From Flavobacteriales bacterium (lineage in GTDB: Bacteria > Bacteroidota > Bacteroidia > Flavobacteriales_F > PHOS-HE28): DNA of 64,000 bases. How positions within the stretch are numbered: the first letter of the stretch is position 1; each line of letters opens with the position of its first letter. Below are positions 2,012-63,738 of the stretch, one piece after another. The DNA is taken from NCBI GenBank assembly GCA_039931265.1, contig JBDTSG010000013.1:14711-78710 (forward strand), given 5' to 3'. Made by a program: the position numbers and the translations under genes. A model generated the notes under the pieces. The model was not told where the DNA came from and did not search any database. It saw only the letters and a program-made list of their open reading frames with translations.

Positions 2012-2685
2012 GCGCACGATTGGTATTGGTGCCCACGCCCATCGGCAACTTGGAGGACATTACGCTGCGGGCAAGGCGGATCTTGGGCGAATGCGACGGA
2101 GTGATCGCGGAAGACACGCGCGTTACCGGAAAATTGCTGCAGTTGCTCGGTATCAAGAAGCCGCTGGTACCCTTTCATGCGCACAACGAGCACGGCATGG
2201 TGGATCAGTTGACACGGCGCTTGCTCAATGGTGAGTACCTGGTGCTGGTAAGCGATGCCGGCACTCCGGCGATCAGCGACCCCGGCTTCTTGTTGGTGCG
2301 CGAGGCGATCAAGCACGGCATCGTGGTGGAATGTCTGCCCGGCCCAACTGCGTTTGTTCCGGCATTGGTGGCGAGCGGGCTTCCCTGCGATCGTTTCGTG
2401 TTCGAGGGTTTCCTGCCAGTGAAGAAGGGAAGGCAGACCCGTTTGGCGGAACTGAAGGCCGAAGAGCGCACCATGATCTTCTATGAAAGTCCGCACCGCG
2501 TCGCGCGCAGCTTGCGCGACTTGTCCGAAGCTTTCGGGAGCGATCGAGCGGCCTGTGTTTCGCGCGAACTGACCAAGATGTACGAAGAGCATGTCCGTGG
2601 TACACTGGCGGAATTGCACGTGCGCTTCAGTGCCAAAGAAACCAAGGGCGAGATCGTGCTTTGTGTTGCGGGTAAGGAACAATGA
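2008..2685 (+). CDS. rsmI: 16S rRNA (cytidine1402-2'-O)-methyltransferase RsmI
   Basis: ATG at 2008 overlaps the upstream TGA as ATGA. The N-terminus is LVLVPTPIGNLEDITLRA...GVIAEDTRVTGKLL and the length is 225 aa, typical for RsmI. The ORF-track start at 1837 is an upstream extension. Confidence 0.85.
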   Translation: MSARLVLVPTPIGNLEDITLRARRILGECDGVIAEDTRVTGKLLQLLGIKKPLVPFHAHNEHGMVDQLTRRLLNGEYLVLVSDAGTPAISDPGFLLVREAIKHGIVVECLPGPTAFVPALVASGLPCDRFVFEGFLPVKKGRQTRLAELKAEERTMIFYESPHRVARSLRDLSEAFGSDRAACVSRELTKMYEEHVRGTLAELHVRFSAKETKGEIVLCVAGKEQ

Positions 2686-3713: not shown

Positions 3714-3750
3714 GGCGGATCGCGTTCGGCGTGGGGATTACCTTGCAGCC

Positions 3751-4725: not shown

Positions 4726-4856
4726 TCTCTTACCCGGCTGCTACGGAATGGCGCCTGCGTTTGGCGTCGATCGCGTAAACCGCAGCCAACCGCATCACCG
4801 CGTCAGGAGCCTCGGCCCCGGCCGGGCAACCCAAACCGTGCTCGGTATGCCACGGC

Positions 4857-4886
4857 GATGAACAACCTTGGCGGGTCGCTCTCGTC
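4857..4886 (+). promoter_or_regulatory. conserved upstream motif GATGAACAACCTTGGCG with ECF-like AAC-N16-CGTC geometry, 50 nt before the paralog 1 ATG
   Basis: The 17-mer recurs at 7394..7410 (GATGAGCAACCTTGGCG) at a near-identical distance from the paralog 2 ATG. The two copies are in different reading frames relative to their downstream genes, so the motif is non-coding. In this copy AAC at 4864-4866 is followed by a 16-nt spacer and CGTC at 4883-4886. Confidence 0.35.
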
Positions 4887-4906
4887 TACGCTACAGATCG
4901 CCCTCA

Positions 4907-7381
4907 ATGAAACGCTTGATCCCTTTTACGTCGTGCTTTCTTGTATTGAACGCGACCGCCCAGCTCGGGCCGGAGCATCGGTTCGTTTATCCCACTGATG
5001 CATGGGCCGTGGTGATCGGGGACATGGATACAGACGCTGATGGTGACGCGGTACAAGGGAACAGTGATCACATTTGGGTGCATGAACAGTTCGCGCTGAA
5101 CCAGTTCCGCGTGACCCATGACCTTGGTTCACCCGGCCGCACGGATCGTTTGCGCATGGCCGATCTCAACGGCGATGGCATCGACGATCTGGTGATGCCG
5201 CGCCGCGATGCCGACGCGATCGCATGGGTGCAGGTGTTGGGCGGCGGGAGTTTCGGGCCGCTGCAGGATCTGGTAACCGGCATCAACCAACCCTTCGATG
5301 TGCAGGTGCATGATCTGGACGGGGATGCTGACATGGACCTGGTCTTCGCTTATGACACCTCCTCGGTGCAGGTGGCTTGGGCACCGGCCTTGGGCGGTGG
5401 TGTGTTCGGTCCAACAGTCGTCATCAGCACTACCGGGTTGGGTTTCCAGATCCCGGAGGACGTGAGCTTCTTCGATGTGGGCGATGTGGACAACGACGGC
5501 GATCAGGATATCGTGGCGAAGGGTGCGGCCCTGACATGGATGGAGAACGATGGGGCGGGGAATTTTTCCACCGTGGCCATACCTGCCAGTTCCAATGTGT
5601 GGGATGTTCAGCTGGCCAATGTGAACGGCGACCCGTATCCCGACCTGATGACCATGGAGAACGATGACATCCACCGTCGGTTGAACAACGGCGGTGCCGG
5701 GTTCAACGCAGCCACGCCGATGCTCATCCTCGACGATGCCCAATACGCCTCGCGCATGGAGATGGAGGATGTGGATGGTGATGGCGACATGGATCTGCTC
5801 TATCGATGGGGAGGCATCGTTTCATTCACCCATAGTGTGCGTGTTCAACTGAACAATGGAGCGGGCAGCTTCAATGCGGGTACCGTCTCTCTGTTTTCCG
5901 ACACGCAACAACCGTTCGCCGTGGGTGATCTTGATGGCGCTGGCGATCGCGACCTGTTCGGGCAGGCGAACCATGGATTGTTCGTTGTGCCCGATGGAGG
6001 CAGTGCCCATATCCGCCTTACCTCGGTGCCCAAGCCCGATCATGTATCGGTTGCGGACGTGAACGGCGATGGCAGCAATGATGTGGTCGTATCCGGTCCT
6101 ACCACCTTCAGTCCATTGACCGAAGGTTTTCGACCACTGCAATTAGGTGTGCATTTGAACGACGCTATCGGGAACGTGAATGAAACACCGCTCGATGGCC
6201 TGGTTTCACCCTGTCCCATCCTTCGCACCGATACCGCAGACCTGGATGGCGACGGCGATCAAGACCTTGTTGCACTATGGCAGGAACCACAGGCCGGTAC
6301 CATGAAACAGTTCATGGTATTGGAGAACCAGAACGGCGTATTCGATTCCATCGGTGCTATCGGTCCCCAGTGGTTTCCATGGATCCCCGAAGATCCGTTC
6401 CAACCCGTGCTGCGCGACATCGACGGAGATACGGATATCGACCTGATGCGGCACATTTCATCCGGGTTGTACCGGAGCGCGAACAATGGCAGTGCGGTGT
6501 TCGGTCCAGAGCAGGAGTTCGATCCAGGAGGCATGTGGATCCTTAGCGCCGCAACGCTTTGCGATGTGGACAACAGCAGTTTGCCCGACTATGTGTGGAG
6601 CCATGGGAACTTCGGCGGTGCCGGACCCGATTCGATCTTCTGGAACGAGAACCTCGGCCTTGGTGTTCCGGGCCCTAACCAATTCGTGGCGATCTCCCCT
6701 GTGCTGACCTTCGCCAACGTCCCGATCCACAGCCAGGTGCTTTCGGGAACGGATCTGAACAGCGATGGGCTCGAAGACCTGCTGATCTTCAATGGTGATT
6801 CGTTGGGCGTTATGTACAACACCGGGGGTGTCCTTAACCCTGCCCAAGAGTGGGCGTGCAACGCGATCGCCTATGCCGTGGGCGATATGGACGGGAACGG
6901 CTATGTGGATATCGTAACGCTGAGCCCGAATGCCGACATTATCGCATACCTCAACAACGGACTTGTTTTCGGCGTGGGCCAATTGATGGCGGCTGCACCG
7001 CAGAGCACCGGCACCAGCCACCTCGCTCTTGCTGATATGGATGGCGACCTCGACCTGGATGTGATCACCTGTTCGGTGAACGGCAGTGCGGCGTGGTTGG
7101 GTAATACGGGCAACTTCCCGTTGGGTATTCCGGAGGCGCGTGCGCACACCACGGTTCATGTTTATCCGAACCCCAGCAGCAGCGGCTTCACGTTGCACGC
7201 ATCTGCGCCGATCCTCAACGCGCAGTTGCTCGACGTGCGTGGCCGTGTCCTCAGGACCATTCACGGCAATGGTACCAACGAATTGCGCATCGAGCGGGGC
7301 GACTTGTTGCAGGGTTTGTATTTGGTGCGGGTGGTGCAGGGCAATGGTGCTGCGTTAACGAGCAGGGTGGTGATGGAATGA
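4907..7381 (+). CDS. FG-GAP (VCBS/integrin-alpha beta-propeller) repeat protein with T9SS type A C-terminal sorting domain, paralog 1
   Basis: Signal peptide MKRLIPFTSCFLVLNATAQ at the ATG 4907; the track start at 4868 is a TTG. Many DxDGDGxxDLV FG-GAP motifs. The C-terminus VHVYPNPSSSGFTLHA...GLYLVRVVQGNGAALTSRVVME is a Por secretion-tail type A domain. Confidence 0.8.
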   Translation: MKRLIPFTSCFLVLNATAQLGPEHRFVYPTDAWAVVIGDMDTDADGDAVQGNSDHIWVHEQFALNQFRVTHDLGSPGRTDRLRMADLNGDGIDDLVMPRRDADAIAWVQVLGGGSFGPLQDLVTGINQPFDVQVHDLDGDADMDLVFAYDTSSVQVAWAPALGGGVFGPTVVISTTGLGFQIPEDVSFFDVGDVDNDGDQDIVAKGAALTWMENDGAGNFSTVAIPASSNVWDVQLANVNGDPYPDLMTMENDDIHRRLNNGGAGFNAATPMLILDDAQYASRMEMEDVDGDGDMDLLYRWGGIVSFTHSVRVQLNNGAGSFNAGTVSLFSDTQQPFAVGDLDGAGDRDLFGQANHGLFVVPDGGSAHIRLTSVPKPDHVSVADVNGDGSNDVVVSGPTTFSPLTEGFRPLQLGVHLNDAIGNVNETPLDGLVSPCPILRTDTADLDGDGDQDLVALWQEPQAGTMKQFMVLENQNGVFDSIGAIGPQWFPWIPEDPFQPVLRDIDGDTDIDLMRHISSGLYRSANNGSAVFGPEQEFDPGGMWILSAATLCDVDNSSLPDYVWSHGNFGGAGPDSIFWNENLGLGVPGPNQFVAISPVLTFANVPIHSQVLSGTDLNSDGLEDLLIFNGDSLGVMYNTGGVLNPAQEWACNAIAYAVGDMDGNGYVDIVTLSPNADIIAYLNNGLVFGVGQLMAAAPQSTGTSHLALADMDGDLDLDVITCSVNGSAAWLGNTGNFPLGIPEARAHTTVHVYPNPSSSGFTLHASAPILNAQLLDVRGRVLRTIHGNGTNELRIERGDLLQGLYLVRVVQGNGAALTSRVVME
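6272..7047. repeat. ~776-bp tract essentially identical to 8796..9571 (gene-conversion-like block shared by the two FG-GAP paralogs)
   Basis: The encoded peptide LVALWQEPQAGTMKQ...DMDGDLDLDVITC is identical in both genes. The embedded six-frame ORFs are identical at a constant 2524-bp offset (6277/8801, 6486/9010, 6850/9374, 6589/9113). By eye, identity falls sharply to roughly 70-80% outside the boundaries at 6271/8795 and 7048/9572. Confidence 0.85.
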
Positions 7382-7445: not shown

Positions 7446-9905
7446 ATGAAACGTTTGATCGTGCTGTTGCCTTGGTTGATCGGTGTGAACATGAATGCGC
7501 AGCTCGGTCCTGAGCACCGCTTCGTTTATCCCGGCGATGCTTGGGCCCTGGCGATCGCCGACGTGGACAATGATGGTGATGGTGACATCGTACGTTCAAC
7601 AACGGGTCCATTGGTCGTCCATGCGCAGGTGGCACCGAACACGTACAGTGTCATCTATGAACTGGGGATGGCCGGGATCGCTGATCGGGTGAGGTTCGCG
7701 GATCTGGACGGCGATGGCATCGAGGACATCGTCTTATCTCGACGAACTGCAAGTGCGGTTGCTTGGGTGCGCGTGCTTGGTGGAGGGAATTTCGGCGTAC
7801 TGGAGAACCTTGTGGCAGGCATTCCTCAAGCGTTCGATGTTCAGATTGAGGACGTGGATGGCGACGGCGATCCGGACCTGGTGTTCGCATACGCGATGTT
7901 GGACGCCACATTGGCGTGGGCACCGAACTTGGGTGGCGGGGTGTTCGGCGCGACGCAGGTCATCGTTGCGACGTCTTTTTCCGTCGACCCGCAACTGGGC
8001 AGTTTTTTCGATAGCGGTGATATCGACCAGGATGGTGATATCGACTTCATGACCAGGACGGCCAATGCCCTGAAATGGTGGGAGAACGACGGCGTCGGCG
8101 GGTTCTCATTGGTGAGCATACCGGGAAGCTCGGGTGTTTATGATGTTCAACTGGCGGATATCGACGGGGACCTTGCGCCTGACATCCTCTTCAGCAGATC
8201 GAACGATCTCTGGAAGTGCGTGAACAACGGGTCGGGCGGATTCGCACCAGAAGAGGCATTGATGCAGTACACCACGAACTTGAAGAATCGCATGGAGGCC
8301 TTGGACCTTGATGGCGATGGAGACGAGGATGTGGCGTACCGGAGGGGAGGCGGCATCGGCATTTCGCACGTGATGGGCGGGTCGATCAACGATGGCATCG
8401 GGAATTTCAGTCAAGTTGGCAGCGCATTGCCGGGGGACTTTCCGCAACCCTTCGCGTACGGGGATCTCAACGGTGCACCGCCGCTCGATCTGGTCGGTTA
8501 TGCGAACGACGGGCTGTACGTCGCTCCTTTTCCGCAGCGTTTGAATTCCGTGACGGGGGCGGTCCATGTTTCCATCTCCGACTTTGATCTCGATGGTGAC
8601 AATGACGTAGTGCTTTCCGGCCAAAACTGGTTCAGTCCGCTCGCCGAGGGACTACGACCGCTCCAACTGGCTCTTCACTCCAATGATGGGGCCGGGGTGA
8701 TGCTGCAGTCGCCCGAAGAACTTTGGGTATCTGCGGCAAGCATTGCCAGGGCCGACGCGAAGGACCTGGACGGTGATGGTGACGATGATCTCGTGGCACT
8801 ATGGCAGGAACCACAGGCCGGTACCATGAAACAGTTCATGGTATTGGAGAACCAGAACGGCGTATTCGATTCCATCGGTGCTATCGGTCCCCAGTGGTTT
8901 CCATGGATCCCCGAAGATCCGTTCCAACCCGTGCTGCGCGACATCGACGGAGATACGGATATCGACCTGATGCGGCACATTTCATCCGGGTTGTACCGGA
9001 GCGCGAACAATGGCAGTGCGGTGTTCGGTCCAGAGCAGGAGTTCGATCCAGGAGGCATGTGGATCCTTAGCGCCGCAACGCTTTGCGATGTGGACAACAG
9101 CAGTTTGCCCGACTATGTGTGGAGCCATGGGAACTTCGGCGGTGCCGGACCCGATTCGATCTTCTGGAACGAGAACCTCGGCCTTGGTGTTCCGGGCCCT
9201 AACCAATTCGTGGCGATCTCCCCTGTGCTGACCTTCGCCAACGTCCCGATCCACAGCCAGGTGCTTTCGGGAACGGATCTGAACAGCGATGGGCTCGAAG
9301 ACCTGCTGATCTTCAATGGTGATTCGTTGGGCGTTATGTACAACACCGGGGGTGTCCTTAACCCTGCCCAAGAGTGGGCGTGCAACGCGATCGCCTATGC
9401 CGTGGGCGATATGGACGGGAACGGCTATGTGGATATCGTAACGCTGAGCCCGAATGCCGACATTATCGCATACCTCAACAACGGACTTGTTTTCGGCGTG
9501 GGCCAATTGATGGCGGCTGCACCGCAGAGCACCGGCACCAGCCACCTCGCTCTTGCTGATATGGATGGCGATCTCGACCTGGACGTGATCACTTGCGCGG
9601 TGAACGGCAGTGCTGCGTGGCTTGGCAACACCGGGAATTTCCCGTTGGGAATTTCAGAGACACGCGTGCATGAAACGGTTCACATGTACCCGAACCCGAG
9701 CAGCAGTGGGTTCACCGTGCATGCTTTATGGGCGATCCAAAGCGTGCAGTTGCTCGACGTGCGCGGCCATGTTCTCTGGAGCATCCCCGGCAATGGCACC
9801 AACGAACTACGCATCGAACGCGGCGACTTGTCGGCGGGCTTGTATGTCGTGCGGGCAGTGCAGAGCACCGGTGCTGTTGCAACAAGCCGGGTGGTGGTGG
9901 GGTGA
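7446..9905 (+). CDS. FG-GAP repeat protein with T9SS type A C-terminal sorting domain, paralog 2
   Basis: Signal peptide MKRLIVLLPWLIGVNMNAQ at the ATG 7446; the track start at 7392 is a GTG. It has the same architecture as 4907..7381. The central ~776 bp are identical to paralog 1 and the C-terminal domain is VHMYPNPSSSGFTVHA... Confidence 0.8.
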   Translation: MKRLIVLLPWLIGVNMNAQLGPEHRFVYPGDAWALAIADVDNDGDGDIVRSTTGPLVVHAQVAPNTYSVIYELGMAGIADRVRFADLDGDGIEDIVLSRRTASAVAWVRVLGGGNFGVLENLVAGIPQAFDVQIEDVDGDGDPDLVFAYAMLDATLAWAPNLGGGVFGATQVIVATSFSVDPQLGSFFDSGDIDQDGDIDFMTRTANALKWWENDGVGGFSLVSIPGSSGVYDVQLADIDGDLAPDILFSRSNDLWKCVNNGSGGFAPEEALMQYTTNLKNRMEALDLDGDGDEDVAYRRGGGIGISHVMGGSINDGIGNFSQVGSALPGDFPQPFAYGDLNGAPPLDLVGYANDGLYVAPFPQRLNSVTGAVHVSISDFDLDGDNDVVLSGQNWFSPLAEGLRPLQLALHSNDGAGVMLQSPEELWVSAASIARADAKDLDGDGDDDLVALWQEPQAGTMKQFMVLENQNGVFDSIGAIGPQWFPWIPEDPFQPVLRDIDGDTDIDLMRHISSGLYRSANNGSAVFGPEQEFDPGGMWILSAATLCDVDNSSLPDYVWSHGNFGGAGPDSIFWNENLGLGVPGPNQFVAISPVLTFANVPIHSQVLSGTDLNSDGLEDLLIFNGDSLGVMYNTGGVLNPAQEWACNAIAYAVGDMDGNGYVDIVTLSPNADIIAYLNNGLVFGVGQLMAAAPQSTGTSHLALADMDGDLDLDVITCAVNGSAAWLGNTGNFPLGISETRVHETVHMYPNPSSSGFTVHALWAIQSVQLLDVRGHVLWSIPGNGTNELRIERGDLSAGLYVVRAVQSTGAVATSRVVVG
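8796..9571. repeat. second copy of the ~776-bp identical tract (see 6272..7047)
   Basis: As for 6272..7047. Confidence 0.85.
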
Positions 9906-25422: not shown

Positions 25423-27504
25423 TGTCCCCGTTCGGCGGAACACGGCGGTGAGTTTGTGGGTTTTGCGCGGGTCGATGGTGATCACGTCGCTCCCCTCCAA
25501 CTGTTTCCACCCTGCGAACTCAAACCCTTCGGCGGCCACGGCCTTCAGCCGCAGCGGCACTCCGCTGAAGGCGGTGAGCCGCGCAGGCAGCGCGGGCAAC
25601 GGCAAGTCCTCCACCTCCACGTGTCCGCCACTGCGCGGGTCCGCCGCTACGGTGATCGTGCGCAGGCCCAGGCCGGTGCGTTCGGAAAGTTGCTCAAAGA
25701 CATGCGGGCCACGTTGCTCGAAGAAGTCGAACAGCGCATCGCGGGCCTCGGCTGGTGCGGGCATCTCCATCTCCCCGCTCCAGCGTGAATGGTCGCGCAC
25801 AAGTGCGTCGGCATGCACGCGGTAGAGGCTGTCGACCGCTGCGCGGGCGGATCCGTTGGCCAGGACGGTGGCAAGTAAAGCGCTCATGCGCGCCAGCAGG
25901 CGATCGCGCATCGTGGGCGCGTGCAGCAACTGTGGCAGGTAAGGAGCCACGGGTGCGGCTTCGGCGCACATGCGCGCCAGGCTGTTGTCATCAGCAGGTG
26001 CCCAAAGGTCCATGTCGTAGAGGACCCAACGCCACTTTCCATCGGGCACCTTCGGCCGCCAACAGCGCACGTTCAGGTCGTGGTCGGCGCGACCGGTCCA
26101 GAGATCGAAACATGCGAGGTCAATGAGGCTGGGCACATCGATGAGCGTTTCCAACGTGTCCAGTTGTGCGCCATCAAGCAGTGCTTCATAGGCCGCGTGG
26201 AAATGCTTACGGTCGCCATCCACTTTGCGCAGCGATGGACCGTGCAGGACATCGAGTGCTTCGTAGTGGTGGACGGTACACAACCAATCTTCGTCCTTCG
26301 GCGGCATCCAACGGTACAGGCCACGGTAGTCACCATCCAGATACAATTCCACCGGTAGCGAGGCCTGCACATCCACGTGGCTGCCGGTCGCCTTCACAAC
26401 GCATTCCATGAAGCGGTTCCGCAGGAACGCGTGCGGCGTGGCATCAGCTCTCAGGATGGCTTCATTGCCTTCGTCCAAGCCAGGCCAGGGCAACTTGCCA
26501 TGCCCGCGTGCTTCCAGTTTCAAATTGCGTTTCGGGAAGCTGCGCGATCCACTGCCGCTTTCGCGTAATCGCACTTCGCAGATACCCGGAGCGCTGAACC
26601 CGAACAGCTCCACCGTACCATCGGAAGAGGCCTTGTCCCTGCCATCCGGCGGTGATCCGCTCACCGCAACCCACGGGGTGCTCAATAACGTGGTGATGTA
26701 CGTTCCTGTGAACGTAGTGCTCGGCAATGCGCCTTCGGCGAACGAGCGCGCCCTGATCACCGTATTGTCTTCAATGGCGATCGGTGCGGTGTAGTTGAAC
26801 CCGTTCTGCTCCGTTGGCTCGGAGCCATCGCGTATGAAGCGCACCGAAGTGCCTTTGCCGTTGCCCATTTCGATCAGCGATCCCTTGGCAACGATCCCGC
26901 CAGGTGGTTGCGCCTGCGGTGGTGCGCTTACGGCGCGCAAGGTTGGCTCCGGAGCGTTCCGGATGCCGAAGCTTGGAGAGGAGAAGAAGCTCCACCCGGT
27001 GCCACCGTCGGGCTGCCGCCCAATGGACACCCCAGCAGGCATGGCGGGCCAAGTGAAGAGGTCCAGGATCGATGAACCATCGGCGGAGATCAGGAGGAGG
27101 GTGCCACCGGTACTCGGGAGTCCGAAACCGATGTGTGGTGGATCCGCGTCCGCTGCCTTTCCGAAGACAATTACGGAGCGTTCGTTGGCCCCCAGGATCA
27201 CATGTTGTTCCAGTGTGGCGGTCCGTTCATTCAGGCTGAAGCGAAGGCCGGAAAGATCCGCAGGGCGTTCGCCCGTATTGAGCAGCTCAACACGATCGGG
27301 GCCTTCGCCCGCACATTGCAGCTCGTTGATCACTACGCGTTGGGCGCTGCCCGCCAAGGCGGAAGTCAGCGCAACAGCAAGCGGAATGCAACGGACGATG
27401 TTCACCGGCCCAAAGTAGCGGGTGGCAGCACCACGGGCCCTCCTACATTTGGGCGCCCCGCCGTTTGGCGGACAACGAAACCGTTCCACCATGATACGAT
27501 CCAT
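25363..27504 (-). CDS. CotH-kinase-family protein with N-terminal lamin-tail domain (LTD)
   Basis: LTD signature VVINELQCAG...ELLN...DLSG. CotH region LPVELYLDGDYRGLYRWMPPKDEDWL...WRWVLYDMDLW. Candidate starts are the ATGs at 27504 and 27492 or the GTG at 27405. The two ATG choices overlap the 5' end of the divergent gene at 27491, so the GTG at 27405 is plausible. Confidence 0.65.
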   Translation of the reverse strand: MDRIMVERFRCPPNGGAPKCRRARGAATRYFGPVNIVRCIPLAVALTSALAGSAQRVVINELQCAGEGPDRVELLNTGERPADLSGLRFSLNERTATLEQHVILGANERSVIVFGKAADADPPHIGFGLPSTGGTLLLISADGSSILDLFTWPAMPAGVSIGRQPDGGTGWSFFSSPSFGIRNAPEPTLRAVSAPPQAQPPGGIVAKGSLIEMGNGKGTSVRFIRDGSEPTEQNGFNYTAPIAIEDNTVIRARSFAEGALPSTTFTGTYITTLLSTPWVAVSGSPPDGRDKASSDGTVELFGFSAPGICEVRLRESGSGSRSFPKRNLKLEARGHGKLPWPGLDEGNEAILRADATPHAFLRNRFMECVVKATGSHVDVQASLPVELYLDGDYRGLYRWMPPKDEDWLCTVHHYEALDVLHGPSLRKVDGDRKHFHAAYEALLDGAQLDTLETLIDVPSLIDLACFDLWTGRADHDLNVRCWRPKVPDGKWRWVLYDMDLWAPADDNSLARMCAEAAPVAPYLPQLLHAPTMRDRLLARMSALLATVLANGSARAAVDSLYRVHADALVRDHSRWSGEMEMPAPAEARDALFDFFEQRGPHVFEQLSERTGLGLRTITVAADPRSGGHVEVEDLPLPALPARLTAFSGVPLRLKAVAAEGFEFAGWKQLEGSDVITIDPRKTHKLTAVFRRTGTSSHHRLQESGEDRLAIGVP

Positions 27505-28984
27505 ACTCTTCTCCACGACGATCGCGGCAGGCCTGCTGGCGAATGCCCAGAACCTGAACAACATTACGTGGAACCCCGCTACCCCTGATGAATGCGACTA
27601 CGTTGAAATGACCTTGGTCGGCAATTTTCCGGGGCAGAATTATCAGGCGGATAACTACACGCTCACCCCTGTCGGGTTCACTATCACGGTGGATATCAAT
27701 TGCAGTGGCAGCGGTGGCGGCAACCCGGCACCTTTCAGCCAAGCGATACCGGCAAGTGGCCCTTATCCGGCAGGCACCTATGCAGTGATCGGGCGGTTGT
27801 TCATCAACGGGAACCAAGTGGACACATGGAACGGCAACAAGACCGTGACCGCATCGCCCGATCCCGATCCCGGTGGATACAACGAGACGACCGTTTGCAA
27901 TACCGACCCCAATGCGCAGCTGATCAGCTTCCTCGCCGGTACGCCTGATCCAGGAGGTTCATGGCTCGATCCCAATGGCGTTGCCATACCCAACGGCACG
28001 TTCGAGCCAGGGGTGAGCCAGCCGGGGTTCTATACCTACGAGTTCAACCAGAACGCGCCCTGCATCGATACCAGCCAGCAGGTGCTGATCACCTACGAGA
28101 TCAATACCAATGCCGGTAGCAACGGTACGCAAACGGTTTGCGTGAACGCGGCACCGTTCAACTTGTTCGCTGCCTTGGGTGGTACGCCCGATGCGGGCGG
28201 GTCGTGGACCTATCAAGGCAATGGGATCAGCAGCACGTTCACTCCCGGAACCAGCGCGGCCGGTGTTTACACATACACCGTTGCGGGTATTGCACCCTGC
28301 AATGATCCTACCGCCACGGTTACGGTCACGGTGGTGCAGCCGGCCAACCCCGGGGTAGGTGGTTCCGTTGCGATCTGCGAAACGGATACGGCTTTCCTGT
28401 TGAACAGCATGCTTACCGGAAATCCGGGTCAATCAGGTGCTTGGTACGATCCGAACGGATTCCTGATGGCCGGTGGATGGAACGCCGTTGTGAACGCGCT
28501 CATCGATTTCCAGGGCAACTTCGAGTACCGTGTCACCAACGCCCCTTGCGCTCCCTCGGTCGCGGTCGTATCGGTGTCGTTCACCAACGCCGAACCGCCT
28601 TGCGGAACAGCCGATTGCTTGGGTGTGCCGAACGGAACGGCCGTACCGGGTTCCCCTTGCAACGATGGCAACGCCAACACGCTATGGGATGAATGGACAC
28701 CGAACTGCGATTGCGTTGGTTCGTTGATCGGCATCGAAGAGCCGGAAGCTGCTGCCGCACTCGTGCTGCAACCGAACCCGGCAACGGATGCGATCACCAT
28801 CGAAAGCCCCGAAGGGTTGGTTATCGGCTACGAACTGGTAGCCATTGATGGCCGCACTGTGCGCACCGAAACGTTGCAGGCCCACCGCGTTGTGGTGCAA
28901 CGGAACGGTATCGCTGCAGGCACTTATCGCATCACCATCCGCTTCGCCGATGGTCGTGCTACCCGCACTGTCGTGTTCGAGTAA
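27491..28984 (+). CDS. secreted repeat protein (LGGTPDxGGxW repeats) with T9SS type A C-terminal sorting domain
   Basis: ATG at 27491 (MIRSILFSTTIAAGLLANAQ signal). Repeats FLAGTPDPGGSWLDPNG and ALGGTPDAGGSWTYQGNG have the same repeat type as in 15066..18038. The C-terminus LVLQPNPATDAITIE...GTYRITIRFADGRATRTVVFE is a type A domain. Confidence 0.7.
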   Translation: MIRSILFSTTIAAGLLANAQNLNNITWNPATPDECDYVEMTLVGNFPGQNYQADNYTLTPVGFTITVDINCSGSGGGNPAPFSQAIPASGPYPAGTYAVIGRLFINGNQVDTWNGNKTVTASPDPDPGGYNETTVCNTDPNAQLISFLAGTPDPGGSWLDPNGVAIPNGTFEPGVSQPGFYTYEFNQNAPCIDTSQQVLITYEINTNAGSNGTQTVCVNAAPFNLFAALGGTPDAGGSWTYQGNGISSTFTPGTSAAGVYTYTVAGIAPCNDPTATVTVTVVQPANPGVGGSVAICETDTAFLLNSMLTGNPGQSGAWYDPNGFLMAGGWNAVVNALIDFQGNFEYRVTNAPCAPSVAVVSVSFTNAEPPCGTADCLGVPNGTAVPGSPCNDGNANTLWDEWTPNCDCVGSLIGIEEPEAAAALVLQPNPATDAITIESPEGLVIGYELVAIDGRTVRTETLQAHRVVVQRNGIAAGTYRITIRFADGRATRTVVFE

Positions 28985-28998
28985 CCCGGATCTGCCCT

Positions 28999-29036
28999 GC
29001 GGAAGCCCTTCGACTTGTCGGGGGGCTTCCGCATTT
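28999..29036. terminator. GC-rich hairpin (GCGGAAGCCC / GGGCTTCCGC, 10-bp stem) between convergent genes
   Basis: A perfect inverted repeat at 28999..29008 and 29023..29032 is followed by ATTTC. It sits 15 nt after the 28984 stop and upstream of the minus-strand CDF gene's 3' end. Confidence 0.45.
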
Positions 29037-29065
29037 CAGGCAGTGCCTCTTGGTCCGCAATGGCT

Positions 29066-29998
29066 TCAGTGCTCCACAGCGCATTGTTCGCCGGGCATCT
29101 CCAATTCAATGGTCGCGTGGTGTACGCCCATTCCGTGGAGAACCGCCCGGGCCTCCTGTTTCACCCGGAGCATGCCTGCCTGATCCGCTCCGGTGGCAGT
29201 GATGTGCAAGGTGAGCACGGTGTAGTTCCCGTCCAGGGTCCACGCGTGTTGGTCGTGCACATCGGTAACGTTCGTGATCCGCATCAATCGTTCGCGCACA
29301 GCGCTCTCATCGAGGCCGATGGGGGCCGCCTGCATGAGGATGTCGGTGCCTTGGCGCAGTGTGCGCACCGCGTTATAAAGGATGTACAAACTGATGCCGA
29401 TGCTCAACAGTGGATCGATCCACACCCAGCCGGTGAGCATGAGCACGAACGCACCAATGAGCACTGCTACCCAACCGAGCACATCTTCCAGCAGGTGGAA
29501 GTACATGGCCCGTTCGCTGAGGCTATGGCCACCGTGCAAGCGTAACGCCGCGAACCCGTTGAAGGCAATGCCGACGATCGCCAACAGCAGCATGCCGCTC
29601 GCATGGGGTGTTCCCGGATGCCAAAGCGCGGGTATGGCATTCCACAACATCAGCACGGCGCCCACGATCAGCACACCCGCGCCGAGCCAGCCGCCCAAAG
29701 CACTGTAGCGTCCGTACCCATAGGAGTAGCGCGCATCGCGCCCCTTCATCGCCAACCCTTGCAGCCACCATGCGGCACCCAGCACAACGGCATCACCCGT
29801 ATCGTGCACGGCATCCGTCAGCACCGCCAAGCTCCCCGTCCAGAATCCACCGAACGTTTCCAAAATGGCGAACGCAACGTTGAGGAAGAAGGCCGTGCGC
29901 AACGCGCCGGTGGTCGGCGTGTGTGCATGATGATGCGTATGACCATCCGTGTGGTCGTGCGCAGGATGCGTGTGCGCGTGATCGTGCATGCGGAGCAA
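29066..29998 (-). CDS. cation diffusion facilitator (CDF) family divalent-metal efflux transporter (CzcD-like)
   Basis: His-rich N-terminus MHDHAHTHPAHDHTDGHTHHH. Six TM helices with the CDF signature FGGFWTGSLAVLTDAVHDTGD. Cytoplasmic C-terminal domain. 310 aa. Confidence 0.85.
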   Translation of the reverse strand: MLRMHDHAHTHPAHDHTDGHTHHHAHTPTTGALRTAFFLNVAFAILETFGGFWTGSLAVLTDAVHDTGDAVVLGAAWWLQGLAMKGRDARYSYGYGRYSALGGWLGAGVLIVGAVLMLWNAIPALWHPGTPHASGMLLLAIVGIAFNGFAALRLHGGHSLSERAMYFHLLEDVLGWVAVLIGAFVLMLTGWVWIDPLLSIGISLYILYNAVRTLRQGTDILMQAAPIGLDESAVRERLMRITNVTDVHDQHAWTLDGNYTVLTLHITATGADQAGMLRVKQEARAVLHGMGVHHATIELEMPGEQCAVEH

Positions 29999-30025
29999 CG
30001 AAAGTAGCGGCGCGGGCGATGGTGC

Positions 30026-31966
30026 TTACCCTACGCTCACCCTTCCGCTGTCCGCGGCCAGCGAACTGCGGAACTTCTCCAAGGCGATCTTCTCTTTCAT
30101 CAGGATCTCGGAATCCACCTCGTCGGCCGTGCGGATCGCTTCCGACTTGTCCAACAAGAGCAGATCGACATACCGCTCCTTGTAACGACGCAACGTGAGC
30201 AGTACGGTCTTGTTCAGTTCGTCGCGTTCGTGCACCACATGGATCTTGCGCCGTTTCCAGTCGTCCAGTTGGTGGCGCTCGGTAACGAGTTCGAGCACGA
30301 ATCTTTTCAGTTCGGCGCTGGGATTCTCGATGAAGTGGCGTAGGCGGTTCTCCGGTTCCGCTTCCACTTGCCCACGGTATTCGCCGAACGCGGTGTTCAC
30401 CAACTGGTCGTGCAATTTCAGGTCATCTTCCTCCAGTTCCTGGAAGATCCAATCGGCGATCGTCACGGTCTGTGCTTCGGCATCGGGGCTGAATTCCGAG
30501 AACAATTGACGGAAAGGAACGTGGCCGTAATGCAAAAGCAAGCGCAGCAGTTCACGTTCCTGCGGTTGCGTGCCGAGGTCCTCCAGTTGCTGTTGCGGAG
30601 GTGCGACATCCTGCGACAGGACTTCCTGCGGCACCTCGTCCCCACCGACCTTCCTGCGGTACTGCTGCCGCAGCACCTTGTTCATCTCACTGATGAGCGC
30701 CTGCTCCTGCACGCCGAGCAGCTTGCTGCATTGCTGCAGGTAGAGCGAGCGCAGCACGTGATCCGGCACCAAGGCAATGCTGGCCACGATCTCGTGGATC
30801 GCAGCGGCCTTCTTCACGGGATCACCTTCCGCCTCACGCACCAGCAGGTCGGCCTTGAACACGATGAAGTCCTTCGCCTCTTTCGCGATGAAGGCCAGCA
30901 CTTCGCCGCTGGGGCGTTTGCGCGCAAAGCTGTCCGGATCCTCCCCATCGGGGAAGAGCACCACCTTCACACTGAGCCCTTCTGCAAGGATGATGTCGAT
31001 GCCACGCAAGGACGCTTTGATCCCGGCCGGATCACCATCGTACAGGATCGTGACGCTGGTGCTGTAGCGTTTAATGAGCCGCACCTGATCCACCGTGAGG
31101 CTGGTGCCGCTGCTCGCCACCACGTTGGCGATCCCCGCTTGGTGCAAGCTGATCACATCGGTATAGCCCTCCACCAACAGGCAGGTGCCTTGCTCGACGA
31201 TGGCTTTTTTCGCGAAGGAGATCCCATAGAGCGAACGGCTCTTCACGTACAGCGCGCTCTCCGGACTGTTGAAATACTTGGGGAGTTTCTTGTCGCTCTT
31301 CAGCGTGCGTGCGCCGAAGGCGATGATCTGGCCGCTCAGCGCATGCACCGGGAAAGTGACGCGGCCGGCGAAGAAGTCCCACGCGTTACCGTCCTCGCGG
31401 CGCTTTATCCAGCCTGCTTTCTCCAACAGCTCCGGGTTGAATCCGTTGGCCATGGCCGCAATGCTGAACGCATTGCCGAACTCGGGCACATAGCCGAGTT
31501 GGAACTGCTTGATGATGTCGTCTCGGAAACCGCGCTCATGGAAGTAGGAGAGGCCGATCCGTTTTCCCTCGTCCGTTTCCCAGAGATGCTCGCTGCTCCA
31601 CTTCTGCGCCCAAGCCTGAATGACGGCGATGCTCTCCCGTTCCGACTGTTCAAGGGCTTGCTCCGGTGTGGCTTCCTCCTCGGGCAGGTCGATGTTGTAG
31701 TGCTTGGCCAGCCAACGGATCGCTTCCACATAGCTGTGGTGCTCGTGCTTCATCAGGAAGCCGATCGTGTCGCCGCTCTCGCCACAGCCGAAGCACTTGT
31801 ATATGCCCATGGCCGGCACAACGTTGAAGCTCGGTGTCTTCTCGTTGTGGAACGGGCACAATCCCAGGAAACGCGGGCCTTTGCGTTTCAGGTTCACGAA
31901 CTGCCCCACCACCTCGTCCACGCGGGCAGCGTCTTTCACCTGTTGTATGGCGTCCGGGCGGATCAT
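30026..31966 (-). CDS. dnaG: DNA primase
   Basis: CHC2 zinc finger CPFHNEKTPSFNV...CFGCGESGD. Toprim region EGYTDVISL...DGDPAG. 646 aa. Confidence 0.9.
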   Translation of the reverse strand: MIRPDAIQQVKDAARVDEVVGQFVNLKRKGPRFLGLCPFHNEKTPSFNVVPAMGIYKCFGCGESGDTIGFLMKHEHHSYVEAIRWLAKHYNIDLPEEEATPEQALEQSERESIAVIQAWAQKWSSEHLWETDEGKRIGLSYFHERGFRDDIIKQFQLGYVPEFGNAFSIAAMANGFNPELLEKAGWIKRREDGNAWDFFAGRVTFPVHALSGQIIAFGARTLKSDKKLPKYFNSPESALYVKSRSLYGISFAKKAIVEQGTCLLVEGYTDVISLHQAGIANVVASSGTSLTVDQVRLIKRYSTSVTILYDGDPAGIKASLRGIDIILAEGLSVKVVLFPDGEDPDSFARKRPSGEVLAFIAKEAKDFIVFKADLLVREAEGDPVKKAAAIHEIVASIALVPDHVLRSLYLQQCSKLLGVQEQALISEMNKVLRQQYRRKVGGDEVPQEVLSQDVAPPQQQLEDLGTQPQERELLRLLLHYGHVPFRQLFSEFSPDAEAQTVTIADWIFQELEEDDLKLHDQLVNTAFGEYRGQVEAEPENRLRHFIENPSAELKRFVLELVTERHQLDDWKRRKIHVVHERDELNKTVLLTLRRYKERYVDLLLLDKSEAIRTADEVDSEILMKEKIALEKFRSSLAADSGRVSVG

Positions 31967-32055
31967 GAAAAGGGGCGTGAAGTTGCGGTTATCGCACTTG
32001 GGCGCCGATCAAGGATGAGCTTCCGTGTTTGGCAAGTCGAGGCAACCTCAAGAGA

Positions 32056-58534: not shown

Positions 58535-59368
58535 ATGAAGCCTTACATCGTTTTGCTGGGCGCATTGCTCAGCACCAACTCTTTTTGCCAGGATACCACG
58601 GCCACCCAAGGCGGTGGCATAAAAGGCTTCTTGGCCAGCAACAAAGGATTCCGCGTCGGCGTGAGCATAGGCCCAAGGCTATTGCCCGGAAGCGGTGGCG
58701 AAGTGGAAGTGCGATACATCGACCAGTCGCCCAGCCGCGATAGTCTGCGTGCGGTGCTCGACATTCCGGCGGTGAAAGCCGTGCTGGCCTACCAACTGTA
58801 CGTGGAAGGCGAGTTCAACCGTGTGTTCCTGCAAGCCGGGCTCGAAGGGTTCTTCGGCAAATTCCACAGCCATGCACCCTTCATCGGTATCGGCGTTACG
58901 CCTTACCGGTGGAAGAACTGGGACGTGCGCCTCTCGGCCCGCCTCACCTATGGCAGCGGTAAGTACGTGTTGGGCGATGTGGAGAACAACTCGGTGTATT
59001 TCCAGATCGGCAATACGCAGATCTACGATCCCTACTTGCGCATGATCTACCGCGATCGGTATGTGGGCGTGATCCCCGCCATCGGTTTGGACAAGAGCAT
59101 CGGCAAGCATTGGGCGGTGCAGGCCAGCGCCAACCTGTTCGTTACCGTGCGCCACCACACACGCGTGCAGTTCTACGGCCACAACGGCGATGGCAAGAAC
59201 TCCGCGGACGACCCGGGCTTTTCGTTGAAGCCCACCGACGATGGCACCGCCGAGGTGGACCTGGATGAACTGGATCTGGATTTTATCCGCGACAACGAGG
59301 TGATCGACAAGCTGCCTTTGTACTACACGGGCCTGTCCTTTCTGGCAGGTGTGAGTTACATGTTCTGA
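58535..59368 (+). CDS. hypothetical outer-membrane beta-barrel-like protein
   Basis: Signal peptide MKPYIVLLGALLSTNSFCQ. Alternating hydrophobic strands. C-terminal ...LSFLAGVSYMF. Confidence 0.45.
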   Translation: MKPYIVLLGALLSTNSFCQDTTATQGGGIKGFLASNKGFRVGVSIGPRLLPGSGGEVEVRYIDQSPSRDSLRAVLDIPAVKAVLAYQLYVEGEFNRVFLQAGLEGFFGKFHSHAPFIGIGVTPYRWKNWDVRLSARLTYGSGKYVLGDVENNSVYFQIGNTQIYDPYLRMIYRDRYVGVIPAIGLDKSIGKHWAVQASANLFVTVRHHTRVQFYGHNGDGKNSADDPGFSLKPTDDGTAEVDLDELDLDFIRDNEVIDKLPLYYTGLSFLAGVSYMF

Positions 59369-59449
59369 GGGCGGCCCTGGATCCCGAGCGCAATGGACAG
59401 CCGGACGCGCGGGGATGCTCTGTGGATATGACTGGCTGACCTGCTCGGA

Positions 59450-59752
59450 TCAAGCGACATCCCACCTTACGGTGTAGGTGTTCATTGGCCCGACAAGGAA
59501 CCTGTTCATCGCTTCAACGAACCGCTTGTTGAAGTCGTCGATCCCATCGCGCTCGGCTTTCACCGTGAAGACATGTTGATAGCCATTGCCGATGACCACG
59601 TTGTAAACGTTCACACCCGGGTTGAGGATGAATTCTCCCTCAAGCATCCCTCCGAACGAAAGGGTCTCCAGCGTGCCGGGAAATGGGAACGCGATAACAG
59701 GTACGCCTCCGGCCAAGCGCAGATGGACAAGTGTGGGGAGCGATGGGAACAT
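59450..59752 (-). CDS. hypothetical small protein
   Basis: 100-aa ORF. The C-terminal 65 aa from MLEGEF (...VYNVVIGNGYQHVFTVKAERDGIDDFNKRFVEAMNRFL...) look globular. No motif recognised. Confidence 0.3.
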   Translation of the reverse strand: MFPSLPTLVHLRLAGGVPVIAFPFPGTLETLSFGGMLEGEFILNPGVNVYNVVIGNGYQHVFTVKAERDGIDDFNKRFVEAMNRFLVGPMNTYTVRWDVA

Positions 59753-59775
59753 TCACCCAAGGTATTGAACCATGC

Positions 59776-59803
59776 GCCGAAGGCAAGCGGCGGCGCTTGA
59801 GCA
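59776..59803. repeat. 28-bp sequence CGCCGAAGGCAAGCGGCGGCGCTTGAGC; intact 'empty-site' paralog of the MITE insertion locus at 60822..60975
   Basis: It is 28 of 28 identical to the sequence obtained by deleting the MITE and one TSD copy from 60822..60975. Confidence 0.7.
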
Positions 59804-59984
59804 GCCTGGTGCGGGGCGTTTGTTCCCCCACTTTCCCTCAAGAACGCCCCATTGCGGAACCCCCCTGCCTACCGCACCGGAAGCGGCTCCCCTTGCTGGG
59901 CACGCCCACACCGGGTATCGGCAATGGACTACGCCGGGAGCGTCAGCGGCACGGTAAGTGGACCCTTCCACCAAATCCTCAGAC

Positions 59985-60713
59985 ATGAAACACATACTAC
60001 TTGCTGTGGGTGCCTTTGCCCTTGGCACTTCCACGTTCGGCCAGACACTCGTCGGTGGCAAGGTCGGGCTCAACTACACCCTCATCAGTACCACCATCGA
60101 TCCCGAACCCGACGATGCACCGGACCAAGGTTCCGGCATCGGCTTCCACGCCGGTGGTTACGTTCAGTTCGGTATCTCGGAACATGTGGGCGTGCGGCCC
60201 GAAGTGCTTTTCTCCATGCGCGGGTTCCAGCAGGACCGCGTGTCCACCTCTTCCTCCAGCGGCCCGTTCGGCACCACCATTACGGACAGGAGCGAATCGA
60301 GCAACAGGACCGCATACAGTTATGTGGAGATCCCATTGCTGCTCTCGTTCCAAGCCAACAAGAAGTTCGGTGTGCAGGTGGGTCCCGGGCTCGGCCTGTT
60401 GATGGGCGGTAAGGTGAAGAGCAGCGGCTCCAGCACGCGCACCGTTACCGATGGCAATACTTCCACCGTCACCACCTCCGACTTCGATATGACCACCAGC
60501 GGATCCGATGTGACCGATGGCTTGCGGAAATTGGAGATCGGGGGCGTGGTGGGCATGATCTACGAGGCCGAAAGCGGAGTGAACTTCGGCATACGCTATT
60601 GGCGCGGGCTGAACACCGTGAACGAAGACACCTCCTACGGCGATGCCACGGTGAAGTCGTACACCAACCTGTTCCAGGCCTCGTTGGGCTACAGTTTCAT
60701 AAAGGCGGATTGA
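59985..60713 (+). CDS. outer-membrane beta-barrel protein (porin-family/OMP_b-brl_2-like)
   Basis: ATG at 59985 (MKHILLAVGAFALGTSTFGQ signal). Gly-rich alternating strands. C-terminal ...SLGYSFIKAD. Confidence 0.6.
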   Translation: MKHILLAVGAFALGTSTFGQTLVGGKVGLNYTLISTTIDPEPDDAPDQGSGIGFHAGGYVQFGISEHVGVRPEVLFSMRGFQQDRVSTSSSSGPFGTTITDRSESSNRTAYSYVEIPLLLSFQANKKFGVQVGPGLGLLMGGKVKSSGSSTRTVTDGNTSTVTTSDFDMTTSGSDVTDGLRKLEIGGVVGMIYEAESGVNFGIRYWRGLNTVNEDTSYGDATVKSYTNLFQASLGYSFIKAD

Positions 60714-60726
60714 TCCTCCCTTCGTA

Positions 60727-60758
60727 TGCTTCGCCAACCCCGGCCCAAAGGCCGGGGT
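60727..60758 (+). terminator. GC-rich hairpin AACCCCGGCC-CAAA-GGCCGGGGTT followed by GTGCATTTGG
   Basis: A 10-bp perfect stem with a 4-nt loop, 14 nt after the 60713 stop. Confidence 0.5.
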
Positions 60759-60837
60759 TGTGCATTTGGAGGTGATCAAGACCTGTCCCGGTAGGCCAAA
60801 GGCCTTAGACCAAAAGCCGCTCGCCGAAGGCAAGCGG

Positions 60838-60955
60838 CCAATGTCATTGAGTTAAGGGTGCCAAAGGCGTTCTTCCAGAAAGTATCCGTCCGGTCCGCCG
60901 TGCGTGGACTATGGGTCGGACGGAATCACAACCGACCTTAACTTGATGACATTGG
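60838..60955. mobile_element. 118-bp MITE-like element with 20-bp terminal inverted repeats and 8-bp target-site duplication
   Basis: TIR-L CCAATGTCATTGAGTTAAGG (60838..60857). TIR-R CCTTAACTTGATGACATTGG (60936..60955), 18 of 20 complementary. The direct repeat GCAAGCGG flanks it at 60830..60837 and 60956..60963. There is an internal hairpin TCCGTCCG...CGGACGGA. No ORF. Confidence 0.7.
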
Positions 60956-60998
60956 GCAAGCGGCGGCGCTTGAGCCGAGCACGGGCGCAGTGGTTGGT

Positions 60999-61517
60999 CT
61001 ACTTCCACAGCCTTTCCGCTCCATGGCGCTGCCAATAGCGTTTGCCATAACCGCAAAGCACCTCCTTGCCCGCAACGATGCGTCGCGTGGCACGCAGGCA
61101 CACCCGGTCACCATCATCCAGCGCGATCACGGCATTGTTGCGCAATGCGCTGCCTGCACTCCCCTGCGCATCGTTGGCGAACTTGGCGAAGCCCGCCACG
61201 CCCATGGTATCCAAGGTGGTGCCGTCCGGCAGTTCCATGAAGTAGCGGTCCAGCCCATGTGCAGCGCGGGCACCGGCCGCCTTGGCGGAAAGTCGTTCGC
61301 CGTGGAAGATGGCGATCACCTCGTCCGCGTAAATGGGAATGGCCGTGTACAGACCCTGCCCCGCACCCGGCAGACCCGATAGGGCTGTGTAGAGATATTC
61401 CTTTTCCGCTAACGGAATTCCATCGGGATCCATGCTGGCACGAACGTAGCGCCTAGCGCCCGCTACCGCCCTTCGAAACTCCCGGACTGCCTCCTCAGCC
61501 CTCCGGAATTTGCGCAT
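60999..61517 (-). CDS. SET-domain protein (putative protein-lysine methyltransferase)
   Basis: 172 aa. GLYTAIPIYADEVIAIFHGERL (SET-N-like). FANDAQGSAGSALRNNAVIALDDGDRVCLRATRRIVAGKEVLCGYGKRYW resembles the SET core/post-SET region, with NHS-like FAND and ELxxxYG. Confidence 0.5.
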   Translation of the reverse strand: MRKFRRAEEAVREFRRAVAGARRYVRASMDPDGIPLAEKEYLYTALSGLPGAGQGLYTAIPIYADEVIAIFHGERLSAKAAGARAAHGLDRYFMELPDGTTLDTMGVAGFAKFANDAQGSAGSALRNNAVIALDDGDRVCLRATRRIVAGKEVLCGYGKRYWQRHGAERLWK

Positions 61518-62121: not shown

Positions 62122-63738
62122 ATGAAGAGATCAATTCTTGTTTTCTGCTGCGTCATCGTCCATTTCTCTTTTGCGTATGCGCAGGGTCCCATCAAGGAAT
62201 GGGATGTTGATCTGGGTGCAGTGGACAATGAACAACTCTACAGTGTCCAGCAAACCAGTGATGGTGGGTACATACTCGGTGGATACTCCGATTCAGGCAT
62301 CAGTGGTGATAAGACACAAGCAAGCCGCGGAAGCTCCGATTACTGGATCGTAAAAACAGACGCGAGCGGCGTGCAACAATGGGACGCACGTTTTGGAGGC
62401 ACCAGTGTGGATCAACTAACGGCTCTCCAGCAAACAGCGGATGGGGGTTACATCCTTGGGGGTTTCTCCTTTTCCAACATTGGGGGTGATAAAACACAAG
62501 TCGGTCGAGGACAGAGCGACTACTGGCTCGTGAAAACCGATGGGAACGGCATACTGCAATGGGATGCGCGCTTTGGAGGAGATAGCCTTGACGAATTGCA
62601 TGCCCTTCAGCAAACCTCGGATGGAGGATACATACTCGGCGGATACTCGATGTCAGTTATTGGCGGTGATCAAACACATAGTCGGCTGGGCGGAAAGGAT
62701 TACTGGATCGTGAAGACGGATCCGAATGGTATTCAGCAATGGGATTCGCGTTTTGGAGGAGCACAATTCGACGAGTTGAACAGCATCATGGAAACCGCGG
62801 ACAACGGTTTCATAATGGGTGGTTACTCACTCTCTGGCGCAAGCGGGAACAAAACACAGCCAAACAAAGGCTCCTACGACTACTGGATCGTAAAGGCTGA
62901 TGCCAATGGCACCATGGAATGGGATGTTGACCTTGGAGGACTGAATGAAGACTGGCTAACGCAACTCCAGCAAACCGACGATGGAGGATACATCCTGGGC
63001 GGTTGGTCATGGTCAGGTGTCTCGGGTGATAAAACACAGCCCAGCAATGGTGATAATGACTATTGGATCATAAAGACCGACGCGAATGGTGTGTTGCTAT
63101 GGGATAAAGCCTTTGGAGGGAACACCAACGATTATATGTATGCCATTGAGCAGACGATCGATGGTGGATATGTGCTGGGTGGCTACTCCAGTTCGGGTGT
63201 TAGTGGTGATAAGACACAACCTACACAAGGTGGCACCGACTACTGGTTGGTCAAAGTCGCTGTGAATGGCGTTTTGCAATGGGATGCGGACTTTGGCGGA
63301 ACCGATTTTGATTTTCTCTATGCGCTCAGACAAACCAACGATGGCGGCTATATCCTGGGAGGGTACTCCTCTTCGGACATCGGTGGTGATAAAACACAAA
63401 TGAGCAAGGGAGTGAATGACTACTGGATCATAAAGACCGATGGCGGCTTTCTGTCAAGTGGAGTTGCTGGGCCCGGCGCAGGTGCTAGCGGACTTGGCAT
63501 ATTCCCCAATCCTGTTCCGCAGTATGCCACACTTTCCTTCACCTTGAGTGAAGCATCCGAAACCGTGATCGATCTTCTGGATATGAGCGGGCGAGTGATC
63601 GTATCACTCGCGGATGAGAAGCTTGCTGCAGGAGATCACACCATCCAGTTCAACCGACGCTCCATACAGGCAGGAGCCTACTTGTTGAGAGTGGGATCCG
63701 AAGAGGGTATGGCGATCATGAAAATGGTGATCGAGTAG
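62122..63738 (+). CDS. secreted tandem-repeat (beta-propeller-like, ~60-aa units) protein with T9SS type A C-terminal sorting domain
   Basis: Signal peptide MKRSILVFCCVIVHFSFAYAQ. Six to seven 180-bp repeats DYW(I/L)VKTDxNGxxQWDxxFGGxxxDxLxxxQQTxDGGYILGGYSxSxxxGDKTQ. C-terminus IFPNPVPQYATLSFTL...GAYLLRVGSEEGMAIMKMVIE. GC is visibly lower (~50%) than the rest of the window. Confidence 0.75.
   Translation: MKRSILVFCCVIVHFSFAYAQGPIKEWDVDLGAVDNEQLYSVQQTSDGGYILGGYSDSGISGDKTQASRGSSDYWIVKTDASGVQQWDARFGGTSVDQLTALQQTADGGYILGGFSFSNIGGDKTQVGRGQSDYWLVKTDGNGILQWDARFGGDSLDELHALQQTSDGGYILGGYSMSVIGGDQTHSRLGGKDYWIVKTDPNGIQQWDSRFGGAQFDELNSIMETADNGFIMGGYSLSGASGNKTQPNKGSYDYWIVKADANGTMEWDVDLGGLNEDWLTQLQQTDDGGYILGGWSWSGVSGDKTQPSNGDNDYWIIKTDANGVLLWDKAFGGNTNDYMYAIEQTIDGGYVLGGYSSSGVSGDKTQPTQGGTDYWLVKVAVNGVLQWDADFGGTDFDFLYALRQTNDGGYILGGYSSSDIGGDKTQMSKGVNDYWIIKTDGGFLSSGVAGPGAGASGLGIFPNPVPQYATLSFTLSEASETVIDLLDMSGRVIVSLADEKLAAGDHTIQFNRRSIQAGAYLLRVGSEEGMAIMKMVIE

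Follow-up and report, generated by a model that had tools for sequence, protein, structure and literature searches.

The closest described counterpart of the element analyzed in this study is the 'IS4-like ISSsu2 family' of Streptococcus suis, for which a paper from 2024 gives the terminal repeat (TIR) CAATGTCATTAAGTTAA (PMC10886379). For the IS4 subgroup, an end consensus of -AATR--------WTW has been derived, and a striking conservation of the target arms has been reported for some of its elements (De Palmenaer et al. 2008, PMC2266710). The duplications have a length of 10-13 bp in the IS4 subgroup and of 8-10 bp in IS4Sa (PMC2266710, Table 1). In the annotated genome of E. coli K-12 the two IS4 ends are TAATGCCGATCAGTTAAGG and TAATGCCAGTCAGTTAAGC. 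Cut-and-paste chemistry is known from IS10, IS50 and IS231. The MIC231 cassettes, which are found only in the Bacillus cereus group, carry passenger genes between IS4-family ends and are mobilized in trans. IS1397 and ISKpn1, which belong to the IS3 family, insert into the abundant REP palindromes.

Here, we analyzed an element of 118 bp in a 64-kb stretch of DNA from the genome of an uncultured Flavobacteriales bacterium with 59% GC; this whole stretch is called the window below. Each of the two TIRs of the element matches CAATGTCATTAAGTTAA at 16 of 17 positions, the family consensus obtained in this study matches it at 17 of 17, and at a Streptococcus locus (L068) the CAATGTCATTAAGTTAA TIR adjoins an IS4-type transposase. 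The parent group of the window element is thus already known and named, namely the ISSsu2-like IS4 group. However, ISSsu2 is a full-length IS that has a transposase and forms composite transposons, whereas the window element contains no gene and its interior is unrelated.

Similarity to IS4 itself is also evident. The E. coli end TAATGCCGATCAGTTAAGG and CCAATGTCATTAAGTTAAGG agree at 13 of 19 positions, the TIR fits the published subgroup consensus with an offset of one base (PMC2266710), and the full-length relatives have a DDE transposase that is encoded by a single ORF and contains the YREK motif. In contrast to IS4, the group has one extra outer C, and it duplicates 8 bp, a length within the IS4Sa range, whereas the K-12 copy of IS4 duplicates 12 bp. 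Because the repeats are 8 bp long throughout, compared with 10-13 bp, membership of the IS4 subgroup in the strict sense was ruled out and the group is placed outside it.

The window element shares with the MIC231 cassettes the IS4-family ends and the lack of a transposase, but it carries no passenger. With IS1397 and ISKpn1 it has in common that a short palindromic intergenic repeat serves as the target, here the same 20-mer in two cases; however, REP targets are abundant, whereas the target of the window element is rare and its targeting is only a candidate. The MITE BrickBuilt of P. gingivalis was considered as well and is unrelated, as it has IS5-type ends. In the searchable literature the full 18-mer was not found, and a literature search yielded no description of short derivatives in Flavobacteriales.

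Anatomy of the element, its target and the adjacent genes

The features of the locus are as follows (coordinates refer to the window):

60838..60955, plus strand: very probably a MITE of the ISSsu2-like IS4 group, without an ORF (based on anatomy, fold and TIR matches to IS4-family elements)
60838..60857, plus strand: left TIR CCAATGTCATTGAGTTAAGG, 16/17 compared with the published ISSsu2 TIR (PMC10886379)
60936..60955, minus strand: right TIR CCTTAACTTGATGACATTGG, reading inward as CCAATGTCATCAAGTTAAGG, 20/20 compared with the TIR at locus L010
60885..60924, plus strand: internal hairpin with the outer stem TCCGTCCG/CGGACGGA (based on the fold)
60830..60837: left copy of the 8-bp target-site duplication, GCAAGCGG
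60956..60963: right copy of the 8-bp target-site duplication, GCAAGCGG
60822..60837, plus strand: 28-mer target, segment to the left of the insertion, CGCCGAAGGCAAGCGG, with the same flank at locus L097
60964..60975, plus strand: 28-mer target, segment to the right of the insertion, CGGCGCTTGAGC
59775..59802, plus strand: uninterrupted paralogous 28-mer ('empty site'), an exact match to the rejoined flanks
59985..60713, plus strand: porin-family outer-membrane beta-barrel gene (PF13505/PF13568), convergent with the SET gene
60999..61517, minus strand: SET-domain gene (PF00856)
60805..60839, minus strand: predicted terminator-like hairpin GGCCGCTTGCC-TTC-GGCGAGCGGCT, followed by TTTTGG, downstream of the SET gene (based on a scan and folding)

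A reading made beforehand from the sequence only had proposed a transposed, MITE-like element at 60838..60955. A script check reproduced its size and position as well as the 20-bp TIRs, which match at 18 of 20 positions, the two mismatches being TIR positions 11-12. The 8-bp duplication that had been described is exact (8/8) and lies directly outside both ends. When nucleotides 60822-60837 are joined to 60964-60975, the 28-mer CGCCGAAGGCAAGCGGCGGCGCTTGAGC is obtained, and the sole other occurrence of this sequence in the window is at 59775-59802. The proposed empty site was therefore correct in that its exact sequence is recreated, but its coordinates had been given one base off, as 59776-59803. 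The similarity between the filled site and the empty site ends exactly at the limits of the 28-mer. With 100 dinucleotide-preserving shuffles, 0.00 chance matches were expected both for the TIR (with up to 3 mismatches) and for the 28-mer, and a chance origin of the pattern is excluded.

The internal hairpin that had been noted was found again at 60885-60924 and has an outer stem of 8 bp. The whole element is predicted to fold with -52.2 kcal/mol (z = -5.1) into a long terminal stem and the internal hairpin. As had been claimed, no complete ORF lies within the 118 bp; those ORFs that extend across it are all spurious. The element was also recovered in an independent assembly, as 1562 bp that include it are 100% identical to a Logan contig from SRR26386599, and an assembly artefact of a single data set is therefore ruled out. 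The copy number of the MITE in the 64-kb window is one; no further copies of the TIR, the 28-mer or the 16-nt core were found in the window beyond the known sites, and a tblastn search revealed no similarity to transposases anywhere in it. The element thus unites several of the features by which a MITE is recognized, namely TIRs, a duplication of the length typical of the family, a small size without a transposase, and a paralogous empty site. As a result, 118 bp that had previously not been annotated are now correctly labelled.

The outer-membrane protein gene of the sequence-only reading proved to be a porin-family beta-barrel gene. The spacer between this gene and the convergent SET gene has a length of 285 bp and contains the element. 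The porin-family gene has a terminator-like hairpin of its own at 60735-60760. The GC-rich arms of the hairpin in the target region can, on the minus strand, also be given as GCCGCTTGCC-TTC-GGCGAGCGGC, followed by TTTTGG, and this SET-side hairpin was predicted in minus-strand folds both with and without the element. The left duplicated octamer is part of the 5' arm of the SET-side hairpin, so that the duplication would have rebuilt the hairpin after the insertion. The insertion was therefore probably near neutral, as it is intergenic and the neighbouring terminator-like hairpin seems to have been spared, and its practical meaning for the host genome would be small. The element presumably lies in the 3' untranslated region of the SET gene, 44 nt past the stop codon.

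Distribution and coding capacity of the TIR family

The sequence CCAATGTCATNNAGTTAAGG was used to scan one genome per species for 185,579 species, and at least 120 loci were retrieved, compared with a chance expectation of about 17 (our own estimate from 2 x 596e9 / 4^18). The matches listed span at least seven phyla and include Bacteroidota, Bacillota, Spirochaetota, Gammaproteobacteria, Nitrospinota, Gemmatimonadota and Anaerolineae. Many of them are situated at contig ends, as is expected of repeated elements. At the loci L002-L121 the 20-bp end is exact, with freedom only at positions 11-12, while both the interior and the exterior vary.

Among the matches listed, each end was paired with a nearby inverted partner, which resulted in 58 candidate elements, and 26 of the 58 pairs were flanked by exact 8/8 duplications. 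Seven full elements of 1449-1686 bp had exact 8-bp duplications (L105, L093, L089, L016, L098, L107 and L014). In six of these seven the reading frame is intact, and all six encode IS4-family DDE transposases. The element of Pedobacter changchengzhani (L105) can serve as an example. It has a length of 1449 bp and one ORF of 444 amino acids, which scored 125 bits against the NCBIfam model NF033592 'IS4 family transposase' (cut-off 115) and had a weak match to Pfam DDE_Tnp_1. The motif Y-2-R-3-E-6-K was present in six of the eight transposase ORFs checked, which stemmed from nine candidate full-length elements; in the L105 transposase a K replaces the R. Plasmid relatives of the transposases of the full elements are annotated as IS4 family, and the transposase of the full-length relatives is 23% identical to InsG of E. 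coli IS4 (E = 1e-12).

In addition, the matches listed comprised more than 40 short derivatives of 74-835 bp that contain no gene and have unrelated interiors. This shows that one IS4-family group has repeatedly yielded gene-less short derivatives with unrelated interiors. The target preference of the family is weak (GCTNNAGC), other subfamilies reside in unrelated flanks, and the duplication at the window element is a poor fit to the preference. Support for the proposed transposition comes from the TIR, which terminates the members of a large IS4-family group, including full-length copies that contain a transposase and are flanked by exact 8-bp duplications. The sequence-only reading had stated that a lack of both copies elsewhere and an IS sharing the TIR would speak against it; copies and such IS were both found.

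Several individual members were also inspected. In a MAG of Tyzzerella, an element of 835 bp (L118, 4332-5166) has two ends that are identical over more than 100 nt, and its flanks are GGAGACTC and GGAAACTC. One MAG contains two copies of a 1686-bp IS (L014, 1102-2787, and L117, 4300-5985) with identical transposases of 482 amino acids. One copy has the exact duplication ACTTTAGT, and the other has the unlike flanks ACTAAAGT and GCTTTAGC, as is expected after recombination between copies. On an IMG/VR contig (L142, 1001-1665) two 217-bp MITEs of the same TIR family are 448 bp apart; the flanks are TGTACGGA at each of them, and the arrangement resembles a tandem duplication in which the element was included.

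Relatives in Flavobacteriales

A Flavobacteriales MAG with 57% GC (L010) encodes the C-terminal part of an IS4-type transposase that is 41% identical to the L014 protein, and this fragment directly adjoins a TIR that is identical to the right TIR of the window element. Another TIR was found 157 bp from a contig end (L087) in the same MAG as L132, a locus with a SET protein that is 81% identical to that of the window. These two loci indicate that autonomous elements with such ends occur in the order Flavobacteriales, judging from genomes other than the source genome. The interior of the MITE and the IS end at L010, the one Flavobacteriales IS end compared, had no significant similarity, as 11 to 110 of 500 shuffles scored just as high, and a derivation of the interior from this end is not supported.

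A homologous short element was found in a second Flavobacteriales genome with another gene context. This element of 125 bp is located in the MAG JADJCX01 (L097), and the metagenome contig L130 represents the same locus. Compared with the window element, 37 of 40 TIR positions and 54 of 77 aligned interior positions (70%) are identical, and the hairpin core GTCCG/CGGAC is kept. The GCAAGCGG duplication is identical, 16 nt of left flank and 12 nt of right flank match at 28 of 28 positions, and about 28 further nucleotides of the left flank are similar. If the TIRs and the flanks evolved like the interior, their levels of identity would have probabilities of about 6e-4 and 5e-5, respectively. The genes around the L097 element are unrelated to those in the window, and no degraded SET gene was found beside it. 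When up to 4 mismatches were allowed, about 160 kb of sequence from the window plus relatives contained the 20-mer target three times, and two of these copies are occupied. The target had been described as a short repeat beforehand, which is true, but it is a rare one, and a REP/BIME-type abundant palindrome was rejected as an explanation of the 28-mer target.

Further collections were searched as well. In metagenome contigs, an exact-match search for the right end of the subfamily retrieved only the L097 locus (L130) and an unrelated MITE (L129), so that the subfamily seems to be either low-copy or too diverged for an exact pattern. Viral contigs had 0 matches to this right end. For the 20-mer they contained only chance matches, none of them in sequence related to the window; five came from one phage group with 68% GC and one from another contig. 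The general TIR was present there in six unrelated elements. The element with its flanks had no match in a plasmid collection.

Relatives of the locus were fetched via the SET protein (L131-L133) and via the porin protein (L134-L138). An orthologous empty site was not found among these eight loci, because synteny breaks at the gene ends in all fetched relatives. None of them contained the 28-mer or a TIR. The window segments 59945-60713 and 60989-61475 are homologous to these loci, the homology stops at the coding sequences or within about 40 bp of them, and the neighbours differ in every fetched relative. The clade is heavily rearranged. In L134 the porin gene directly follows a homologue of window nucleotides 26291-31982. 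In L132 (4524-7701) and L133 (10001-13048) the SET gene lies next to ftsK and converges with it; the L097 region considered alongside is 1719-5351. The window MITE is 44 bp away from the SET gene, and the L097 MITE is 1.1 kb away from the 3' end of ftsK.

Probable origin of the element and possible target choice

The element is very probably a MITE, composed of two 20-bp ends for an IS4-family (ISSsu2-like) DDE transposase and a short non-coding interior. Direct support comes from the TIRs, the duplication, the paralogous empty site, the full-length transposase-encoding relatives with the same duplication length, and the homologue in the second genome. A transposase from a full-length element elsewhere would have bound both ends, excised the element and pasted it into the chromosome with 8-bp staggered cuts, and gap repair would then have yielded the GCAAGCGG duplication. 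The insertion would have occurred between the convergent genes, in the 5' arm of the terminator-like hairpin behind the SET gene. Mobilization in trans is presumed, as is a cut-and-paste chemistry, the latter by analogy with IS10, IS50 and IS231. Points that speak against the MITE reading are the single copy and the lack of a transposase in the 64 kb, the metagenome search that retrieved no new locus of the subfamily, the missing similarity of the interior to the IS end at L010, and the poor fit of GCAAGCGG to the weak preference GCTNNAGC.

The same ends and the same duplication would also be displayed by a full-length IS that lost its interior on the spot and was never mobile as a short element, and the single copy seen in the window would fit such a remnant. 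However, the L097 homologue, which has a related interior and lies between unrelated genes in another genome, makes this origin unlikely; moreover, the interior contains no detectable remnant of a transposase and does not significantly resemble the IS end at L010. We therefore regard an on-the-spot deletion as very improbable. An even smaller probability is given to a role as structured non-coding RNA or regulatory hairpin in place of a mobile element, with the long terminal stem as its function. The strong fold is in line with this idea, and all three TIR mismatches of the window and L097 elements are G:U-compatible on the plus strand. These are too few to count, however, and with two sequences there is no usable covariation. 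In addition, these 20-bp ends are also found around transposase genes and around dozens of unrelated interiors, and an RNA gene would have no use for an 8-bp duplication. A search of the region 59300-61500 with Rfam 15 (E up to 10) detected nothing on the element, the matches being limited to weak terminator-like ones at 60706-60802.

A third alternative concerns the history of the two copies. The window and L097 elements could represent one older insertion, contained in a block of roughly 180 bp that was inherited or copied by recombination, and we consider this a serious possibility that falls somewhat short of an even chance. In that case the element would not have been recently active in these two genomes. 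The identical duplication and the 16 + 12 identical flanking bases in both genomes argue for a single block, as do the weak target preference of the family, with other subfamilies in unrelated flanks, and the rarity of the 20-mer, of which two of three copies are occupied. The gene order is also compatible with it, since SET and FtsK genes are convergent in relatives, the window copy adjoins SET, and the L097 copy is close to FtsK. According to our own reasoning, however, simple orthology would not explain how the block is oriented with respect to SET and FtsK. Furthermore, the TIRs and the flanks are far better kept than the interior, which is expected from repeated selection by the transposase and from target choice, respectively. 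An unoccupied copy matching at 28 of 28 positions is present in the window, and the intergenic DNA next to the porin and SET genes cannot be aligned between these relatives, so that the same would be expected of an old neutral block.

For the MITE itself, a tentative and rather unlikely extension is that its lineage, unlike the rest of the family, selects as its target a conserved hairpin of about 20 nt that resembles a terminator (CGCCGAAGGCAAGCGGCGGC), the arm of which is rebuilt by the duplication. If this were true, it would represent a sequence- or structure-specific choice of 'safe sites' by an IS4-family transposase in Flavobacteriales. The outcome would be comparable to that of REP-targeting insertion sequences, and this would offer a simple system to study target choice in IS4-type transposases.

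Two further repeats were noticed in the window. Nucleotides 62122-63738 (plus strand) encode a protein of 538 amino acids with seven tandem units of 180 nt (60 amino acids), which contain the motif DYWIVKTD..G..QWD..FGG, and with a T9SS-type C-terminal tail. A direct repeat of 300 nt (6239-6538 and 8763-9062) has copies that are 97% identical and 2.5 kb apart, and it is located inside a coding sequence rich in DGDGD-type repeats.
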